Shown piece after piece: positions 2,684 to 59,567 of a stretch of 64,000 bases of DNA; the first letter of the stretch is position 1; every line of letters starts with the position of its first letter. The DNA is from Octopus vulgaris (Eukaryota). A program made the translations under genes and the position numbers. The notes below the pieces were generated by a model. The model was not told where the DNA came from. It saw only the letters and a list, made by a program, of their open reading frames with translations, and searched no databases. The stretch is from NCBI GenBank assembly GCA_951406725.2, contig OX597828.1:4836001-4900000 (forward strand), read 5' to 3'.

Positions 2684-4130
2684 CATACATCTATGTGTAT
2701 ATATTTGTGTTCGAAATGGTTGTTTTCGAAATAATTTATTCAATGTTCAGTTCTTAGGTATTGCTTTTTAACATTTATAGATGATTGTACTCCATTATAT
2801 AAATCCTTGTATTTTGGGAGCTTCAGTAAATGAAGCATGGGAAGAATTAAAAATTTGATGTACAAGTCTACAACTGCAAGCAGTGAAACATTTTCCCTAC
2901 CGCTCCACCGATTCTGGCATTTCAGAGCTAATCAGTCTTGTATGGCTGTTATACTTCAAACCAAACATGATGTCTATATATGTGTGGTACATATTTTCTA
3001 TTAGCTGACATGATTATTTGTACGTATTTCTGTTTGTTAGTAATAAAACATATCTACAGATATAAAACTGCCTTCCTCTCACAGAAATTTATTACATTTT
3101 TTATATTTTTTCTTTTTAAAATATATTTAACTCGACGAATCTGAAATTCAAAGTGTCTCCTCTTTCACAATTTTAAACATATTCGAAGATTCCAGTCTCA
3201 TAACAATTCAACTTTAAAATCGTTAAGAGTAATTAACATATTGTGTATCTTCTAGTAACATTTCCCTGATTATCTCTCTACTGATCACGTCCAGGTACTT
3301 GTATACGTGACATTATTTATAAGACTGTCCCAGAAGCATTTAATTAATGAATTAGGAATTTGCTTTTCGCCGACATGATTAGGTTGAGCTTCATTGATTA
3401 TAACCTCTTCAATCTATCTTTATTGCAACCATTAATAGCTGTCATGAATTAAGCAACATTTTAATCAGACCATTTTCTCACACAGTCAACTTCATCCTCA
3501 TGTTCCTATTATCGACCATGTCAGGTCATACTACGAAAATATGGCTTCACATTCGTGACACCATTTGAAATACGCTTTATGAAGACTATGAAGTATCTGA
3601 AGCTCTTTAACTAGATTCAGAAGGAGACATTCTATAATAATAATTGATCGGTTTGCATGAAATTAATTAGCAATATCGAACATAATTATTATCGGTATAT
3701 AAAATCACATCAACAATAGACTTCGCAAGAAATATATGATTTTATTATTACTGAAGAAATATATAGAAATATTTTTTTTGTTTTTTATATGATAAGGGTT
3801 CCTCGAAACACCTGCGAAAAATCTATTGTTCATACGCCTATCATAATTATTTAACTGATAAATATAATCATAAATATAAGTATCATTGTGATATTGTGTT
3901 TATTGTTGATGTTGCTTAAACCATATTAAATCTCTGAGCGAGAGTTAAACAGTAACAGTATGAGATCGTAAAATATATTTGCCAACTAAATGTGGCGGTG
4001 CCATAGAAGACGATCCTACCGTTGTTTTTAGCCCCAAGAAGACATCTCCTCCAGCTGGCTAACTACAAACTGCATCCGATTAGCATTTGTGAATGGATGT
4101 CATCGTTCCCATCTCTAACCTTACTTGATA

Positions 4131-4174
4131 CACACAGACCCGGGTTCTTGGTAGTTACCCGTCTTCAGTGCATG
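4131..4174 (-). ncRNA. Minimal type I hammerhead ribozyme, one A lost from the GAAA box
   Basis: Minus strand CATGCA-CTGAAGA-CGGGTAACTACCAA-GAAC-CCGG-GTC-TGTGTG. Stem I has 6 bp including two G-U pairs, stem II is GGT/ACC, stem III is palindromic ACCCGGGT. Confidence 0.7.
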
Positions 4175-4605
4175 ATAATCACTAGCTAGTGTTGAAAACT
4201 CATTCATCTCGAAAAATAATATATGCTTTTGCAGCGACAAATTGTCGCTGATATCAAAAACGGAGAAATAAGCAATTTTAAATCTCTGAGCGAGAGGTAA
4301 ACAGTAGTAGTGCGGAATCGTAAAATATATTGAGCGATGACCTTTGTCCGCAAATAGTAATCCTACTCAGTGTGTCGTTAGCCAGCTGATAGAGATCTCT
4401 TCCAGGGGCTAAAAACAACAGTAGCATCATCCTCTATGGGACCGCCACATTTAGTTGGCAAATATATTTTATGATTCCGTACTGTAAGTGTTTACCTCTC
4501 GCTCAGTTTATTTCTCATTTTTCTAGATCAGCGACAGTTTGTTGCTGGAAAAAGTATATAGTATTTTGTGAGTGGAAGGAGTTTTCATTACTAACTGGTG
4601 ATTAT

Positions 4606-4650
4606 CACACACTGAAGACGGGTAACTACCATGAAACCCGGGTCTGCTTG
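4606..4650 (+). ncRNA. Minimal type I hammerhead ribozyme with intact core
   Basis: CACACA-CTGAAGA(4612-4618)-CGGGTAACTACCAT-GAAAC(4633-4637)-CCGG-GTC(4642-4644)-TGCTTG. All core positions are canonical with a GUC cleavage triplet; stem I has two mismatches in this copy. Confidence 0.8.
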
Positions 4651-5174
4651 TATCACGTAAGGTTAGAGATGGGGGTGTATCGTTAGCCAGCTAGAGGAGA
4701 TGTCTTGTTGGAGCTAAAAACAACAGTAATATCGTCTGGAACCGACACATTTAGTTGGCAAATATATTTTACGGTTGCTTAAAATCTTTATTATTTACAC
4801 TGTCCAGAATTTGCAGCCAGTACTCAGCTACGCATAACCCACACGCTGCGTACGCGCACGCACATACACACACACACGTATGCCTACATAAATATGTGCA
4901 TATATGCACACGTATATATCAAAGAAAGAGAGTGAAAGAGAGAAAGAAAGTAAGACAGACAGAAACTAGATTAATAGACAGATGTGCGTAATTTTTGAGT
5001 TTGTAATTGTAGTTTATTAATGTTTATCGGTTTATATCGTTTGTATAAAACGTCTACTTGCTTATAATCTCCATGAGTATTTTTGCCTGGTTTGTTGAGA
5101 TTTGTGTTAGCGCAGTTTTTGTTTGTATTTTGAGTTGTAGTAAATCTGTAGACTACTGTTTAATCTTATAATCT

Positions 5175-21038: not shown

Positions 21039-21591
21039 AGTGAGAGAGCAGTTCATGTCATCAAAGTGACACTGGGGTAAAATATACGAAGCCCAATATA
21101 CCCATCATGACTACCTGTCTGATAAAGGTACACCAAGCACATGCATCACAACCATATGTGCGCGACATGGTGATCTCATATCAAGATAAACAGCACATGA
21201 CCTTGCAGGTGGGGCCCAGTTAGAATTTTCTTCGGGTTGAGTAGCCCATCTCGCTCAAATGGTCCCTGAATAAGGGTTGTTTAAGGATGTTGAAAGAACC
21301 ACCCATGTTTCCAGAGGTGAACTATTCAAACCCCAAAGAATCCCTCTCAACACATGGCTATGATGCTCCCCCACTACTTCTGCTCGTGATCAGAGATGCA
21401 CATATCGTCAGCCACTAAGGGACATGCTCAACTGGTTAAGGTCAAACAACTGACAAGCAAATCTGTGGTATTGAGCAGAATATTTGCTGTAGCCCATCTT
21501 TTATACCAAGACAAAACAATGTACATGATAACACTTCCAATCAGTTAAGATCAGAAGCCATGAGAGCCACTGCCTGGTACTGCATCAGGGC
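21039..21591. mobile_element. Apparently full-length ~555-bp non-coding interspersed repeat flanked by (TTA)n
   Basis: Partial copies at 13597-13731, 52401-52632 (inverted) and 59881-60215; no long ORF; bordered by ATT repeats. Confidence 0.85.
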
Positions 21592-21599
21592 TATTATCA

Positions 21600-23190
21600 C
21601 TTGGTCACCTTCGGAATCGTTTTGTATCGCACGTTCGGTCCGCCATGGATGCTCACTCTCACCCATTCTCTACGTGCTGGCACTCGAGTTATTACTGCGG
21701 AACCTGGATGTTTTGAGAGGCATCCTGCGTGAACTGGGATGTCAGCGTTTACGGATGACATCACTGTGATAGTGTCGGACATCTCGGAAATTGAGATGGT
21801 CAACACTATTCTAAGGGAATACCTAACGGTAACAGGAGCAATGATCAACTAGAAGAAGTCAGTGGGCTTGCAGCTCGGTACCTGGAGAGGTAGACCTATG
21901 TCAGCCGACAGTATTGTGGGGTGCTGGGCGGAAGGACCTGTTAAGTTGCTCGGGGTTTGGTTCGGTCCGGATCTCCAAGTGGACAACAACTGGGATGAGG
22001 TGATAGATGGGGTGGCCAGTGTCACCAGAAATAGGCCGAGAGGAGGTTTTCCCTGAAAGGTCGGTAAGAGATGGCGATGTGTAAATCGCATCCGTCATAT
22101 ATTATCGCCTGACTGTCGTCCCTTACCCCGATTAGTGGCTGAATGGGCTGGTGCGTTTGCTCTTCTGCTTCCTATGGAAGGGACAGGTACCGCTTGTCAT
22201 ATGGCCCATTTGATGCCGTAGCTGAGGATGTGCATTTATGCGCTGAGGTTGTGACATCTCCAGCGATACCTTAACGGTGAGCAGGTATGGTCACTGTTGA
22301 ACGCGCTTTTCCGGAGATCATCTCTTTGACGGAGCTACAGTCCTGTATCGGGCGCTTGACACCTAGAGTGCATCCAAGTGCTTATAACCCTCGGCCAGTC
22401 GGGCAATGCGGTAAGTGAAAGTTCTACCTTGGAGTTCTATAGGAGATTAGTGGAGGGCTAGACTGATGACGTACTTGGAGAGGTGCTGGGCGTCGAGGGG
22501 GATCAACTGGTTGGTCTCTTGTGGAGGTCTTTCGGGACCGAGATCTACGGACAACTTCCAGAAAGCCCTGGCCTGGCTTGCTTCCGAGGGATGCTGCCGG
22601 TTCGAGATAAGCTCTTACAGGTAGGGGTTTGCAGTCAGTCGGGCTTGTCCGAGATGCATGCGGAGTGATGAAACAGTTCTGCATGCTCTTGTACAGTAGC
22701 CGCACATTGATGAATTCTGGGGCTTTGTCGAACAGTTATTGTCACGTGTATATTGATCCGGCTATCGTCCGCGTCCATTGTGAAAATCGCCCTGCCTCCT
22801 TCCTTTAGCAGTGTCGGAGGACATTTTTTCTCTGTCTGGTGGTTATGGCAAAAGCGGTTGTGGACGCGACTGAAAGGCTTCAATAAGGGTTTCTTTCCTC
22901 TTTGACCAATGCCTCATTGAATTTTTCAGGTTCCACCTGAAAAGGTAAGTGAGGTTGGTGAGGGAGCTACTGTCACCCAATAAATTCGTTGAAAGGTGGG
23001 TAAATGTGGCAACAATGGTCCGCGTGCATGGGTCTGCTCTAAGTGTGCACCTGTAGAACAGATGGAAGGGAGACTAGAATGTACCTTCCTGAGGGCCCCT
23101 TCGTGTTAAAGGGTCCAAAATGCGTGACGTCTCTTTGGTTATTTTGTAATAGATTCTAGTTGTATAAGGCCTCTACCACCTTTGATACGT
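21600..23190 (+). mobile_element. L1/Tx1-type LINE 3' half (RT to C-terminus), decayed
   Basis: RSVRHGCSLSPILYVLALE, FTDDITVIVSD, KLLGVWFGPDLQVDNNWDEV; collinear with 57740-59565. Confidence 0.9.
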
Positions 23191-32607: not shown

Positions 32608-32829
32608 GCATACATACACACATACATACTCAAAATTGTGTACACGAACTTAGAAGGTTAAGAGTATGTATGTATACGAGTTTTCTGACGCTATATATAT
32701 ACAAACGTAAATCTCAAATATGTAGAAGAAGGAAATGTTAGTAAATTAGATATATTTAATAAAGTGCATATATATTTAATAAGTGCATATGTACAAAGAA
32801 TGATAAATGGTTGTTGTCTAATTGTTGTT

Positions 32830-33480
32830 ATAAGGGATACATTAATATAAATAAGAGAACGATGACAGAGATTGTTAGTTTTATTATTTATGGGTCGATT
32901 GTCGTGTTTGCGGGTAGGGTGTTTGAGCAGGTTAGAGGAATTCCGGTGGGGGCAATTGTAGCTCTCTATTGGCGGACCTTTATCTTTCTTCCTGTGAGTT
33001 CCCTTTCCTTAAAGACCTATGTGCGAGAAAAAAAAAACTTGGTTTGTTTAAACAACTTAATGGATGTTGCAGATACTTAGATTATATATTTATACTTAAT
33101 TATGGTTTCTTTGCATTTTTTACTTATTTAGATATACCCTAGTGAGCTTAAGGCCACTAGAAATGGTGATAATATAAAGAATATCAATTATTTAGATGTC
33201 AATTTAATAATTGAGGATAATAATGAGATATGTTCTGACATTTATAATAAAACAGAAGATTTTGGTCTCCAAGTGGCTTCAATACTACGATTCAGTATTA
33301 GTATTCATTCTTTTATAGGTTATGGTGTTTTTTCAGGCCAGATTGACGTTATTATAAATAATACTAATACAGTTTTGGAAAGAATAAATAAATTAAGACA
33401 TTTAGTAGAACACGGCTATAGATATTGCGATTTGTTAGTACGTTTAATTACTGTTTAGGTGAGAGACTGAAAATTTTATA
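32830..33480 (+). mobile_element. Penelope-like RT fragment of a second lineage (Naiad/Chlamys-like, tentative)
   Basis: FAGRVFEQVRGIPVG, RYLDYIF, DIYPSELK, INYLDVNL, DIYNKTEDFG, YGVFSGQI resemble the PLE pattern GIPMG...RYIDD...IYP.EL...YLDL...YDKRDDF...YGVYISQL. Confidence 0.7.
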
Positions 33481-39565: not shown

Positions 39566-40660
39566 TAAAATTACTCGGGTTCGGTTTCATCCAAATTTCC
39601 AGATAGAGAACTGGCACTAGGTGAAAGGCAGAATGGCCAAACTTAATCGGAAATGGGCTGAGATGGAGCTGTCACTAAAAAGTCCAGCAGAGGCGAAGAC
39701 GACTTCGTCAACTCTGCCATGTATTACTGCCCGACATTAACCTAATCCACATCTCGTTAAACCAGAGCATATGCGCTTTCGTGTTTTAGGGAGTGTAACG
39801 GTTCCACTGATCAGGCGCTCAAGTAATTTCCAACAGCCGATACCTAAACGACTGCGTATTTCGAGGCCGATGATGCGCGTGATGTCTCCAGCGATTGCTC
39901 ACTAACGAGCTGCTACGTTCACTGTAACTCAAACGCGTTTTGTTAAAGGCTGTCTTTTTAACCGATCTGCTATTTTTAGTTCGAAAACTGAGATAGAGCA
40001 TCAGGCATTATGAATATGGTGGAGCTCTTATGGATAATGCGCTGGGAAGAGTTTGAACGTTGTCATACTTCAGAGAATTAATGACGGATAATACATAGCC
40101 ACATTCTTGAGGAAATTATACACTTCAGTGAACATCAACTGGTCCGTACGCTGCTGAGGTCTTTCGAACTATGACCCACAGATAGTTTCAAAAAACTATT
40201 TGGCTTCATACTCTATCTAGTTGAAATATCATGTCGAGATAATCTCTATATGCATCAAAATGCTGTCTCTCACGCCTGTGAAAGACTCATGCTGAGCCAT
40301 GATACAATCCTGCATGCACTCATCCATTTCCAATGAGTGCTGCCTTGTGGACTTCTGCCTAACATCGGTACTCACATGCAGGGTGGATCTACCTTATCAG
40401 CCGACACCATTGCGAGGAACTCTCATTGATGCTGATTGATATGGATGATCGGATGTTTCTGACAAAAAATGTGAAGGGTGAGGTGAGTAAAAGGGCTGAT
40501 GAAAAACATAATTCGGTCAAGCATTCATTAGATTTTTTCTAAAATCTCTTGAATCGGATATTGAGAGTGAAGAACGGAATGATGCTTACCAGCATATTTG
40601 TTGAAAGCCAGATGAGAATATTAAGGGTGTTCTGGGCGTACGAGTCTGCTGATGATTGAA
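39566..40660 (+). mobile_element. Old L1/Tx1-type LINE fragment (post-RT to C-terminus)
   Basis: KLLGFGFHPNFQIENWH*VKGRMAKLNRKWAEMELSLKSPAE matches KLLGVWFGPDLQVDKNWEEVTSRVACLTQKWAERKLSLKGRAE at 58113-58240; DTILHALIH matches ETVLHALVQ. Confidence 0.75.
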
Positions 40661-40868
40661 TTAGAAATTATGGAATGGAACAATTGTCCGAATTTGAAAG
40701 TGCGTGTGTGTCGTTTTGTGGGGATCCACAACTACCTACTTTTTTGTTGTTTATTTTTTTACACAAGCTTCTTTCACAATTGGCCGAGATACCTACCTGG
40801 ACAACTCTGATGATTACATGTTAAAACCTGTCTCAAGGCATGAAAGCAAGAAAGCATTATACTCAGTA

Positions 40869-44926: not shown

Positions 44927-46827
44927 ACACACACACATATATATATACATACATACATACATAATAACTTGGATCAAATACATAAAACTGCGAGGTGTCA
45001 GTAATAGTTGAATACCGCACCGAATATCCTACTTGCTACTATAGCATTACTATTATAGTACAAAATTAACTAAATACTTAGCTAGACATAGTACATATGT
45101 ATCCACCATTTTCTTATGCATCACGCAGTTTCTATACCTTTAAAATGAACAGCATCCACAGTTCTATATTTCATGCTTCTATCAGTATATTTAACATTGT
45201 TAGAAGAATCGGTTTGCATACACGCATTATTGATTGGTTTTGCCCGTAACATCTTTCTTGTAACTTAAATTATGAGCAGCTAAGGATTATATATATATTT
45301 ACAAAAGAAAAAAACCTTTTGCACTACGAGTCATCCTTAATCCGAGTAATATAAAAGAAAACAAATAAAACCATAAGATCATTATCAATATTTTCAAACG
45401 CCAACAGTCTTAAAATCGTTCATTAATATTTGTACGTTTGTATTCGCTTACAATTATTCAATAATAAGTGAATTATAAGAACAGATGTCTTATATACTGT
45501 CCCCTGCGAAACACGTTTAACTTTTCTTAAATACTCAAACTCTTTTCAAAATCATAAATAAACGCAATCGCAAACAATTTATCTTATTACTTTCCTCTAT
45601 CATATTTAGAAATTCACAATTTTGATCTCCCGATATTCAGAATTTTCGGTCTTTCAGCATTTGTTTTTGTGACGATCGTCCTCTTGTGGACAAATTTAAG
45701 ACCCAACCGTCCAAATACGTGCGTGAGCGTACATAATGATGTATTTACATACATTAACACGCACACACTCACTCACACACACACACGCACACACACACGC
45801 ACACACACGCACACTCACGCACATAAACACACATAACTACACGTACACACACACATACAGACTTATAACTACACGTACACACACAAACAAATATCATATA
45901 ATGTGTGTGTATATATGTTTAAATTGTTCGATCGGCTTCTGCAGAGGTTCAAACGAAGAACTTCGGCCAAAATGTATTTGAAATCGTATATCGTAGACAG
46001 GAAACTCTGGAGCTGTTTACAGCTTAGTGTGCTTGAACCCAAAATATTAATTTGAACAGGAAAATTCTTAACTGCAAAATGATGCTTACATTTTGAAGAC
46101 GATTCCTGCCTCATTTCAATCGAGGACCATATAATAAATACAAGGCAAGTACTCTTGTTGATTAAATAAATTTCGACACCTCCACAAAATGTGTGCTTTG
46201 TGTCTACGTTAGAAATCTTTGTTATTTTCATTAATGTGGTTTTAGCCGTATTTTCCCTTGGTAGTGTTATTATTTTATTTGTAGTTATTTCGTTACTTGT
46301 TTCATCTATTCATATATATTTTTTGTTTCATTCTTCCTTTAGCCGTTAATAAATAGCGTAATGGGAGTGAATATTCTCTGCTTCCTACTCCACGTCTTGC
46401 GAGACATCATCAGATGCTTCTCACTGAAATAGATTAGTCACCTCTTTTAATAAATAGTAAAACGCTAAAAGACAGGAAAATGTCTCATATATAGCTAAAC
46501 CGATTTTAGCGTGTGCATGTGTTTATGTATGTATTGATATACATATATAGATATATACATAGACACATACATACATATATATATGTGTGTGTGTGTGTTT
46601 ATATGTGTGTGTGGTATGTACATATGTATGTATATAAATATATGCATATAAGATGCGTATGTATGCGCGTATATTTATTGGATTTTTGAAAAGGCTGTTT
46701 TTCTTCTTGCACTAAATAATCTGCATATATATTACATTGATGTCTTTTCTTTTTTTTTCTTCTGTTTTTTTCAGAGACGTCTGTTACCACGATCGAATCA
46801 TTATTTTTCTGCGCCACAATACAACTT

Positions 46828-47824
46828 CCAGTAATAGGTTCTCTACTTCACTTTAAATCACTACCACTGCATTCCATCAAGATGTTTCCTGATTAGATTA
46901 ACGTAAATACATACTTGTGTATCAATGAGACTTGTGATTTTCGCATTTACGTATGCATTAAATCTGTATTCATCATTCTGTTTTTACTTTTCTCCAGATA
47001 TTTCAATTTATTTCCTTAAATATTACCGTAAAGACAAAAGCGAAATAGTCCAAAACTTTTCGACATTATATCAAAATACACAGAGATTCTGTACATCAAT
47101 TTCATAAATATATTTGAAAGAAAATGATATTTCGATATCTATTACTGAAAATTTCATTAGAGTATCAAGAAATAATATCAAGAGATGATACGAATGTATT
47201 GTTAGCACATATTTCACTGTGATTTATGATGTCTGTCCCCAACCCATTTACTACACTGAAATTCATAATCTCAATGAGAACCAACGTAAATATTTGTATA
47301 GAAACATGTATATGTTATGTCTAATTCTATGAAAATACTGCAACTTTGCGAGACAAACCTAGCAAGACCAGTGATATGTTGACACCAACTTTGTAGCTGG
47401 CAAAGACATTTGTTGAATCAGTCCTTCACTTTAAAAAATAAGCAGTAGAGCAAAATTATCAAATATGTTGCTTGCGTTTTATCTTTGAATCAGCTCTCTG
47501 GTGACACCTACAGGAGATAGTGGAATATGCAAATCAGTTGGTATCTGAAAACAAAGAATAATAAACTACATTGAAATGTGGACCTGATAGGTGCTATTAA
47601 AATACTATGAAGCCTATTTGATTACTCCGAGTGTAACACGTTTTCATGAAATATCTGGAGAAAAGTAAAAACAGAATGATGAATACAGATTTAATGCATA
47701 CGTAAATGCGAAAATCACAAGTCTCATTGATGCACAAGTATGTATTTACGTTAATCTAATCAGGAAACATCTTGATGGAATGCAGTGGTAGTGATTTAAA
47801 GTGAAGTAGAAAACCTATTACTGG
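46828..47824. mobile_element. 997-bp foldback / MITE-like element with 178-bp terminal inverted repeats
   Basis: 46828-47005 and 47647-47824 are reverse complements with two mismatches by eye; termini CCAGTA...TACTGG; CTT flanks both sides. Confidence 0.85.
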
Positions 47825-48627
47825 CTTCCTCTAACGCACTTCTGACAGCTCTGCACTCGTACTGGAGACATACAATGGCTATCTTATATAAGTATGCAAA
47901 ATATATTGAATTGCATTATAAGTATAATAAGCCCTGTTGTTTGGAGCGGTGAACATAGATTATTGGTGCAAAAAAAAGAAAACAGAGCGCTTCGACCACA
48001 TAAAACATATGTACAAAAATAAATACCAAGCCGTCTCAGAAATTACACGGGATCTATCATAAATGTAATGTTTATTTACTTTTTATTTAAACAATAACAT
48101 GTAACGTGATAATGGTGTAGTCATCTAATTTGAGATGTATTTTGTTTTCAATTTTCATATTGAGAATGTTGCTACATTAATTTCAAGATTAGCATAGATC
48201 TATGGTTGCTCTAGTGAATTTAAATATGCCTATAGCATGACCGTTCAATCTAAATGATACCAGACAAAGTCATATGTTCCCTGAATAATATAAACCCAGA
48301 TGTTTACGGATACAAAATGAGGGACTGTGCAGCGGAAATAAAGAAGATGCATCATATGGTAAAACAATGGTAAAAGAATTCCGTATCAATTTCCTTTGCG
48401 TGGAACTCTTTCTGCTCTGAGATACACTGAGGTCAGGATAAGTGTTTTTGTACATCACCTTATATCACACACGGAGTACTTTTTTTTAGAAGCTCCGAGG
48501 TAGCTATAAGGGGATACACAACGTCTAACGTCTGAGAACACTGAATCGTATCGTTGAAACAGTTGTAAGCAAATGAAATTGATTACGTAAATCATATAAT
48601 ATGTGTCTATATATATATATAGAGAGA

Positions 48628-49088
48628 GTAAAATCTATTTACTAACGTAAAATGGCAATCCTACTACGTTGGCAAATAGATTTGACGCTCTAGTACTGTT
48701 ACAGCTTACTTCTCGCTCAGAGTTTTAAAACTAATTGCTTTCGTCTTTACGAGATCAGTGCTTGTGTGTCGCTTTGAAAGTATATCACTCGAACAAGGCC
48801 TAGCGTTGCTATCTCTAGCTAACGGTAATCATGTGCCGATGACGAGAAATTATCCAGAAATCAAGGTCCGCGAGTACTGTTTAAGTTGTTTGAGTGGAGA
48901 CATTAACTCAGTTGTTCGAAGCATAAGCATGCAGCTGTGTATCAGTAGTCAGCTGGAAAAGATGTCTTCCGGGGGCTAAAAAAAGGTAGTAACATCGTCC
49001 TGATCAGGACAGACACTGTACATTGGCAAATAGATTTTACTCTGTAGTACTGTACTGCTTGCTTCTCGCTCAGAGATTTTTAAAACTA
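48628..49088 (+). mobile_element. Second locus of the ~350-bp hammerhead-bearing tandem unit
   Basis: TTGGCAAATAGATTT...CTCGCTCAGAG..TTTAAAACTA at 48669 and 49023 (period 354). Shares CAGCTG...GATGTCTT...GGGGCTAAAAA blocks with 4380-4770. Degenerate hammerhead at 48833-48871. Confidence 0.75.
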
Positions 49089-49092
49089 TATA

Positions 49093-49129
<37 letters not shown>

Positions 49130-49211
49130 CATAGTACATAGTTTCTTTTCCGTTTAGATAAGATCAATAAAAGAAAAGTACGCCATCCGGTGGAAGATAA
49201 AAATTATTTAA

Positions 49212-57739: not shown

Positions 57740-59567
57740 CGGGTGGATCGCTGCTTTATACAGCAACATCGGCTCGGTGATACGGGTGAACGGTCACTTT
57801 TCGGAACCGTTCGACATATCGCGTTCGGTCCGCCAAGGTTGCCCTCTCTCCTCTCTCTTGTACATATTGACTCTCGAGCCATTACTGCGCAAGTTGGAGG
57901 CTTTGAGGGGTATCCCGCGCGATCTAGGAGGCGGAAACAGCGTGTCTGCCTATGCCGACGACGGCCTGATTGGCGAGACACTAAACGAGTACGAAGCGGT
58001 GACAGGGGCAAAGATTAACGCGGAAAAGTCTGTGGGCTTGCAACTGGGCACCTGGAGAGGCAAGCCCATACCGTCCAACAGCGTCGTAGGGCGCTGGACA
58101 GATTGACTCACTAAACTGCTCGGGGTCTGGTTCGGTCCGGACCTCCAGGTGGATAAAAACTGGGAAGAGGTGACGAGCAGGGTGGCATGTCTCACCCAGA
58201 AATGGGCCGAGAGGAAGCTGTCCCTGAAAGGTCGAGCGGAGGTGGCGAATGCGTACATCGCATCCGTCATGTATTACCGCTTGACCGTCGTCCCTTGTCC
58301 CAACCGCTGGTTGGCCAAGCAGCTTGGCCCAAGCTGGTACGCATGCTCTTCGACTTTTTGTGGAAGGGTCAGGTGCCACTGGTCAGGCGATCCATCTGCT
58401 GTCAACGACCGCTGAACGGAGGCCTTGGAATGCCGTGGTTACTGATGCGCAGACATGCGCTCAGGCTGCGACATCTCAAGCGTTTCCTAGACGGTGAACA
58501 GGTGTGGTCGTCCTTTGTCAGACGCGACTTTCCGCAGCTCGTCTCTTTGACAGAGCTGCAGACCTGGATCAAACGTAGACCGAGAAAGGGCGCTTGGCAC
58601 CTCGAGTGCCGTCAAGCTCTCTCCGCCCTCCGCCAGGCGGGCAATGCGATCGGTTTCAGCTCCACTCTAGCGTTCTATAGAGGGTTAGTAGAGGAAAAAT
58701 GCGACGACGTTCTCGGGGAAACACTAGGCGTTGACGATAACGAACTGAGCGGTCTGTTCGGAAGGACTTTCGGGCCGGGGCCAATGGATAATTTCCAGAG
58801 GTCGCTCGCTTGGCAGTGTTACCGAGGGGCTCTGCCTGTTCAGGATAGACTCTACCGGCACGGAAGTGCCGTTAGCCGGGCCTGCCCGAGATGTTGCCAG
58901 GACGACGAAACCGTTCTACACGCACTCGTCCAGTGCCCGAGTATTGCTGAACTATGGGTTTATATCGAACAGCTACTGTCACGTGTAGGACGGATTCGGC
59001 TATCAGCCGAATCCATAGTGAAGATTGCCCCGCCGACCCCCTTTAACAAGGAGGGCGAGGCCGTTTTCTTGTGCCTAGTGGCTGTGGCAAAAGAGGTTGT
59101 ATGGTGGACCTGTTTGAAAGGGCTAAAGTCAGACACTTTCCTCTTTGGTCAAGGCCTCATCAACTTTTTCAAGTTTCACTTGAAAAGGAAGATGAGATTA
59201 AGAGAGGAGAGTGCTGTCCGATAGCAAGTTTTCTGAAAGGTGGGTGAATTGTGCGAGAATGGCCAGTATAAATGGACCAATTCTCAGGTTTCGCCTGTGA
59301 TTGAAAAAGGTTTTATAAAAAGAGAAAGGGGCTCTCTACCCCCCTTTTGACCAGGCTCCCGTTGGCTTTTATGGGGGTTTTTCCACCAGGAACCTTTCGA
59401 AGCGCCTCCCTCTATTGGGAGATTTTCGTTGTTATATTATTTGATTGTTACACTGTTTTTACACGATTTTTTCACAAACGGACAAAACCCTTCGTGACCT
59501 TTCGTCCTGTTTTGTCCCTTTATGTTTTCTAATCATATGTATCAGCCCTTGTGGCCAATAAAAAGAA
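57740..59567 (+). mobile_element. 5'-truncated L1/Tx1-type LINE (RT, zf-RVT/CCHC, 3' UTR, AATAAA, (TAT)n tail)
   Basis: RSVRQGCPLSSLLYILTLEPLL, VSAYADD, CPRCCQDDETVLHALVQC; AATAAA at 59557-59562. One stop (58104-58106), a frameshift near 58320, and an in-frame deletion right after YADD relative to the 21750 copy. Confidence 0.95.
58187..59224 (+). pseudogene. Longest ORF in the window (345 aa): C-terminal part of Tx1 ORF2, not a host gene
   Basis: LFDFLWKGQVPLVRRSICCQRPLNGGLGMP and CX2CX8HX4C are L1-clade ORF2 features; the first ~48 aa are out of the true frame. Confidence 0.85.

Follow-up and report, generated by a model that had tools for sequence, protein, structure and literature searches.

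We think it rather probable that two loci in the window, that is, the whole 64,000-nucleotide stretch of Octopus vulgaris DNA analysed here, are old and decayed insertions of a single high-copy hammerhead family with an ORF-less unit of 353 bp, for whose mobility a Penelope-like element (PLE) likely supplied the reverse transcriptase (RT) and GIY-YIG endonuclease in trans, the template being most likely linear. The family is likely a non-autonomous element moved by Penelope enzymes, and as such a new member of a known sort of element. A Penelope-type insertion had been proposed in an earlier note made from the letters of the DNA, and this reading is supported, more strongly than was argued there, by the one-sided tail and the coinciding outer ends of the two loci, as well as by an exact 10-bp target-site duplication (TSD) at one of them.

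Architecture of the two loci

The two loci, A (3911-4783) and B (48623-49088), each consist of a direct and an inverted arm (Table 1), in which unit positions are counted from the first T of TTGGCAAATA (position 1). At locus B, 49019-49088 matches 48665-48733 at 62 of 71 positions (87%) with a period of 354, so that period and direct overhang are as the earlier note had given them, and the direct arm extends from position -4 through one full unit to about position 61-65. The 5′ inversion described there is likewise present, with 48628-48649 matching the reverse complement of 48665-48686 at 19 of 22 positions; its length of 22 nt did not hold, as the arm measures about 40 nt and 48625-48662 aligns ungapped with the unit junction (30/38). 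Of 7039 window positions sampled outside microsatellites, 6, belonging to two distinct sites, gave a local inverted match of such a score. Because the inverted arm reaches 48662 and carries the majority letter of the related contigs at all four tested sites of direct-arm deviation, the two arms abut head to head without a spacer. Contigs from two public runs cover 48380-48974 (run X3, two differences) and 48380-48728 (run X8, six differences), and since they cross both the left junction and the inversion, the arrangement is not an assembly artefact. The candidate TSD of locus B is indistinguishable from the surrounding microsatellite. Adjoining the locus on the left, 48555-48604 is a fragment of another repeat, with a depth of about 3300 versus 43 in the flank and with 22, 13 and 13 contigs extending leftward.

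Table 1. Features of loci A and B in window coordinates
Feature	Position	Strand	Details
Locus A, TSD, left copy	3911..3920	+	GTTGCTTAAA, exact 10 bp
Locus A, direct arm	3921..4331	-	411 nt, with a period of 352; spans +7 to 352 followed by 1 to 65; contains a hammerhead relic (4131-4174)
Locus A, inverted arm	4332..4773	+	442 nt, shortened by deletions from about 494; outer end at position 19; contains the best-preserved hammerhead core (4606-4650)
Locus A, TSD, right copy	4774..4783	+	GTTGCTTAAA, exact 10 bp
Locus B, left flank	48608..48622	.	(TA)n/(AG)n target; candidate 7-bp TSD TATATAG at 48616-48622, weak, within microsatellite
Locus B, inverted arm	48623..48662	-	about 38-40 nt; positions -17 to +21/23; outer end = fixed end 1
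Locus B, direct arm, one full unit	48665..49018	+	354 bp; GC about 42%; without conserved ORF
Locus B, decayed type I hammerhead	48830..48874	+	U4 to C; helix II 2/4 pairs; predicted cleavage after 48868
Locus B, direct overhang	49019..49088	+	62/71 to unit start; end at position about 61-65 = fixed end 2
Locus B, tail	49044-49088	+	last 42-45 nt of direct overhang
Locus B, right flank	49087..49133	.	(TA)n; candidate TSD copy at 49087-49093

At locus A, the inverted arm begins at about position 230, continues through a full unit that lacks about 54 nt and closes with positions 1 to 19; this unit-junction-unit tandem order led us to reject a TRIM/LTR reading. The period is 352 in the direct arm and 300 in the inverted arm, where deletions account for the lower value, and neither arm (411 and about 494 nt) is nested in the other. 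The exact 10-bp TSD encloses the whole composite with both of its arms; a 10-mer common to the 20-nt flanks was found for 162 of 200,000 random pairs of window positions, and a staggered-nick origin would, in this one case, put AAN^ATC at both nicks.

Across the entire unit, locus B and the direct arm of locus A are collinear, with 233 of 333 positions identical (129/191 in the middle part alone) and a score of 155 against -57 ± 14 for 500 shuffles (maximum -5). The collinearity that the earlier note had expected was thus found, in place of the short blocks without collinearity that it had named as speaking against it, while the pair of coordinates it had put forward for the alignment proved to be shifted by about 60 nt and gave a global score of 14. 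Its description of both loci as longer than a monomer and furnished with an inverted segment also stands. A profile search of the 64-kb window returned loci A and B and no third locus.

The outer ends of the inverted arms lie at position 19 (A) and 21-23 (B), those of the direct arms at position 65 (A) and about 61-65 (B), and the direct arms overrun the end of the inverted arms by 42-46 nt in both loci, giving a one-sided tail. Under uniformly distributed ends, the chance of both end pairs coinciding is about 0.0004-0.0007 (n = 2 loci), a value that applies to a small sample picked for exceeding one unit. The targets of both loci are AT-rich or microsatellite.

A contig of organism E covers the left junction of locus A (3400-3960, 22 differences, about 4% divergence), so that at least the left end of this locus is common to E. 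Taken together with the divergence of 13-21% between the arms within one locus, this makes the insertions old. An empty site was found for neither A nor B, the organism E contig at B stopping inside a skipped repeat. Both loci look like dead, old insertions without sign of function.

Hammerhead relics, coding content and family size

A relaxed type I hammerhead descriptor matched the window at four places, three of which fall at the homologous place of the unit (48830, 4606 and, on the minus strand, 4174). The first of these is the relic that the earlier note had placed at the homologous position of locus B, present and decayed; the fourth match (40643-40690, +) is unrelated to the unit, has no obvious helix II and is probably due to chance. 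In the three unit copies the core and the three helices are recognisable, and each copy is damaged. One A of the GAAA is missing in copy A1 of locus A, and copy A2 has two helix I mismatches and lacks, at the base of helix II (4631), the pairing letter that most related contigs have. Over the 35 pairing cells of the three copies, 80% pair, versus 17-61% with the partners slid; covariation among the three copies did not exceed that of shuffled controls (267 of 500), and comparison with Rfam recovered no hammerhead, neither across the window nor at locus A or B. The locus A hammerhead has an unpaired base after A9 and a short palindromic helix III, which are traits of PLE-type hammerheads (PMC4209133). 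Locus B holds one hammerhead and locus A two on opposite strands, with no same-strand dimer at either, and the copies at both loci are probably dead as ribozymes.

The unit measures 352-354 bp, has a GC content of 0.41-0.42 and contains no conserved ORF; the longest stop-free frames (97 codons in B and A2, 69 in A1) are not common between copies. It is not an autonomous PLE, as it has no ORF with RT and GIY-YIG endonuclease. Folded as circular monomers, the decayed copies are no more structured than 60 shuffles (z -1.2 to +0.8), and the alignment fold of the unit, again from decayed copies, reaches -39 kcal/mol, the covariation contribution being unfavourable.

No autonomous partner of the family was found in the 64-kb window, whose sole PLE-like RT relic (about 32760-33460) lies without a unit copy next to it. 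This broken reading frame on the plus strand contains the motifs GIP.G, YLD, IY.K..DF and YGVF..Q, which we take to be those of Penelope-like RTs; its part 33132-33455 had no Pfam hit and no homolog among longer proteins, and the frame had an Atlas score of 0.97 to clusters in which 18-67% of the members have PF26215. Relics of non-LTR retrotransposons lie at 57790-59224 (+), with zf-RVT at E 3.6e-9 in 58157-59221, and at 21440-21769 (+), with a weak RVT_1 match (E 0.004) in 21440-21766. Further elements of the window are a stretch of about 1 kb at 46828-47824, whose 178-bp terminal inverted repeats are 99% complementary, with CTT on both sides, and which looks like a young non-autonomous DNA transposon, and a near-perfect hairpin at 2397-2497 with arms of about 40 bp and sub-threshold matches to miRNA families only.

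The 353-bp family is large, as is evident from the hundreds to thousands of related contigs that public runs contain. At 80% likeness, three DNA-type runs yielded 2177, 2678 and 2580 contigs matching locus A; contigs matching B and its flank numbered 644, 360 and 667, some of them belonging to the other short repeat at 48555-48604. Runs X23 and X24, which are RNA only by guess and have no bearing on expression, yielded 165 and 21 contigs. Summed over the unit, depth exceeds that of the flank, mostly by a factor of tens to thousands, a ratio that is not to be read as a copy number. The stretch 46700-49085 was found, whole or in part, in 20 listed runs under five organism labels, none recorded as RNA, and degenerate-motif scans for the unit gave no match in metagenome contigs and none in viral contigs.

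The outer end of the inverted arms (end 1) recurs in these contigs as a break at sites where the reference itself continues. At 49043 (position 21), 15 contigs of run X3 and 11 of run X8 have loose ends with a CT/TATC-rich microsatellite consensus; at 4474 (position 20), 16, 10 and 2 contigs leave the unit into one common 22-nt sequence followed by simple repeats (agreement 0.75-0.98). The pile at 4474 may stem from few loci, a variant family or a repeated target, and the 20-nt flank motif behind it is absent from the 64-kb window. Loose ends at 3923 (position 63; 34, 34 and 31 contigs) were considered as a family-wide fixed end and downgraded, since they coincide with the reference's own end and their consensus resembles the continuation of the unit (about 19/30 by eye; agreement 0.51-0.57). 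This pile is probably a mixture, and with it ambiguous, end 2 is not cleanly supported family-wide.

Inversion junctions are found in other copies as well. In contigs matched to locus A, at least four unambiguous ones (4321 to 4408, 3998 to 4456, 4272 to 4406 and 3942 to 4426) were counted among the best 15 of 176 joints and 12 of 41 table rows, and in contigs matched to locus B, at least five opposite-strand joints occur among the best 15 of 51. Support for each amounts to one or two contigs in a run, and their inner ends vary. Other contigs cross the unit junction and continue beyond the tail (49039 to 48693).

Priming and template of the insertions

Read inward from its flank, every arm of the two loci is antisense, which is the orientation expected of two first-strand cDNAs. 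In the course of events that we propose, the PLE enzyme would nick both target strands about 10 nt apart, and each nicked 3′ end would prime its own cDNA; the cDNA from start site 2 (position 61-65) would give the arm with the tail and that from start site 1 (position 19-23) the other arm, and the two 5′-truncated cDNAs would be joined head to head. Self-priming on the antisense template was earlier proposed for head-to-head junctions, according to the accessible text of PMC3846280. Fold-back of a single cDNA cannot make locus A, since its arms are not nested. The available part of PMC11167929 describes a purified anole Penelope protein that nicks and extends both strands of AT-rich DNA; its reverse transcription starts at two internal sites, between which the tail lies, and uses mainly RNA uncleaved by the hammerhead. 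A literature search on Penelope with pLTR and twin priming found no paper. A further idea, according to which priming of the second RT sets the point at which the direct arm ends, agrees with A (+7) and B (-4) and not with the long overlaps described for Pen2a; it was set aside as a lead.

All three long arms (411, 424 and about 494 nt) exceed one unit and cross the predicted cleavage site, so that the template was either an uncleaved multimer or a circle. We favour an uncleaved, more-than-unit linear transcript, for which no circle would be required, because a unit with its overhang can serve as its own template and is just what an uncleaved linear RNA with a partial tandem would yield, because neither locus, in the absence of two same-strand hammerheads, could itself make a circle, and because hammerhead cleavage was dispensable for Penelope insertion in vitro, as far as the accessible text of PMC11167929 reports.

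Distinctly less likely, although worth serious thought, is an account with the same element and enzyme in which the template was a circular monomer, formed by hammerhead cleavage and ligation and reverse transcribed for more than one round from fixed starts. The idea of a circle is already in print (PMC4209133; PMC7761336, the latter in its accessible part), and more-than-unit copying of it was proposed earlier (PMC4209133). Besides the length of the three arms, the unit size speaks for it, matching the 330-390 nt of the mussel and axolotl retrozyme circles in the available text of PMC7229834. Differences from the family majority are, moreover, almost all private to one arm, as if the arms had begun alike (of 31 comparisons, 2 shared, 25 majority and 4 other); however, this pattern is equally expected from the decay of any near-consensus template, and the comparison does not separate a circle from a linear multimer. 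The monomers are also not unusually self-paired (above). The earlier note had itself inferred a circular template and had looked to scattered, permuted ends for its support; instead, the outer ends are fixed in both loci, and a family-wide break lies at position 20-21. Fixed ends with TSDs, the outcome it had set against its inference, were found in part, as the ends of both loci coincide and locus A has the 10-bp TSD. Fixed starts are nevertheless compatible with a circle, since Penelope RT starts internally at set sites (accessible part of PMC11167929).

It seems to us unlikely that A and B are 5′-truncated stumps of an autonomous PLE with tandem 353-bp hammerhead repeats in its terminal region. 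Most PLE insertions are indeed 5′-truncated and PLEs with tandem minimal hammerheads exist (PMC7229834 for the axolotl, in its available part; PMC4209133), and the block upstream of the start sites has far deeper coverage than the hammerhead; yet all three long arms wrap into their own unit without passing into foreign sequence, the top loose-end consensuses within the unit (best 6 per run) are diverged unit sequence by eye, and the longest stop-free frame, at 97 codons, is not common between copies. We give very little credence to a dispersed repeat in which overhang and inversion arose later at each locus through DNA-level duplication and fold-back: the short, local inversion of locus B could be a fold-back product, but the ends coincide in two loci that are 30% diverged, the TSD of locus A encloses both of its non-nested arms, and inversion junctions are present in other copies.

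Relation to known elements

In the accessible parts of PMC3846280 and PMC8557442, a typical Penelope insert combines direct pLTRs with an inverted one, has a 31-bp tail on one side only and is accompanied by a TSD of 8-10 bp. Typical EN+ Penelope insertions, as far as these sources describe them (Pen2a_Av, PMC3846280; PMC8557442; PAc, PMC11167929), share with A and B a head-to-head inverted 5′ copy with a partial tandem, a one-sided tail and AT-rich or microsatellite targets; their 8-10-bp TSD is like the exact 10 bp at locus A, and their hammerhead lies upstream of two end sites, as in the unit. In contrast to them, the unit is without an RT-GIY-YIG ORF, its period is 353 bp instead of about 3 kb, and the tail of A and B measures 42-46 nt against the 30-40 nt published for Penelope insertions.

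The second likeness is to animal non-LTR retrozymes, which the available text of PMC7229834 and bioRxiv 10.64898/2026.07.22.740005 describes as ORF-less, 150-450 bp long and with a GC content below 50%, as is the unit, and as dispersed and high-copy, with one type I hammerhead per unit and a TSD of more than 4 bp; the 353-bp family is alike in being dispersed and high-copy, has a probable type I hammerhead that is damaged in each of the three copies, and shows a TSD of 10 bp at locus A. Loci A and B differ from them in having decayed cores and no same-strand hammerhead dimer. Active retrozymes are recognised by two consecutive intact hammerheads, which both loci lack, and the 353-bp monomers are not highly self-paired, unlike those of animal non-LTR retrozymes. 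The bioRxiv preprint holds that animal retrozymes derive from PLEs and are non-autonomous, a thesis drawn in its accessible part from co-occurrence and pLTR phylogeny. Whereas in these two sources the link between retrozymes and PLEs thus runs through ribozyme type, co-occurrence and pLTR phylogeny, here it runs through the anatomy of the insertions.

Non-autonomous Chlamys PLEs such as MRC1 are ORF-less PLE derivatives like the unit and, as it does, form pLTRs and head-to-tail copies (accessible text of PMC8557442). They are green algal, and the same text reports no canonical hammerhead in the Naiad/Chlamys elements, whereas the 353-bp unit has the relic of a hammerhead. A literature search by title or abstract start found no paper on the 353-bp family itself; subscription papers, Repbase/Dfam and preprint supplements, which lie outside its scope, may contain it.

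The link between retrozymes and Penelope is already in print, and what the 353-bp family adds is an anatomical fingerprint, consisting of the tail, the inverted arm and the 10-bp TSD. With so short a unit, an arm can be longer than one period, and for this reason both priming on the two target strands and the choice between a circle and a linear multimer become countable in an assembly. It is tempting to speculate, although we hold this only tentatively, that the family is a circle-forming animal retrozyme inserted by a pair of Penelope RTs priming both nicked strands at two fixed starts, each for more than one unit. If this were true, the many short copies would document in the genome which helper the retrozyme uses, and twin priming would account for the inverted pLTR as well as for the one-sided tail.
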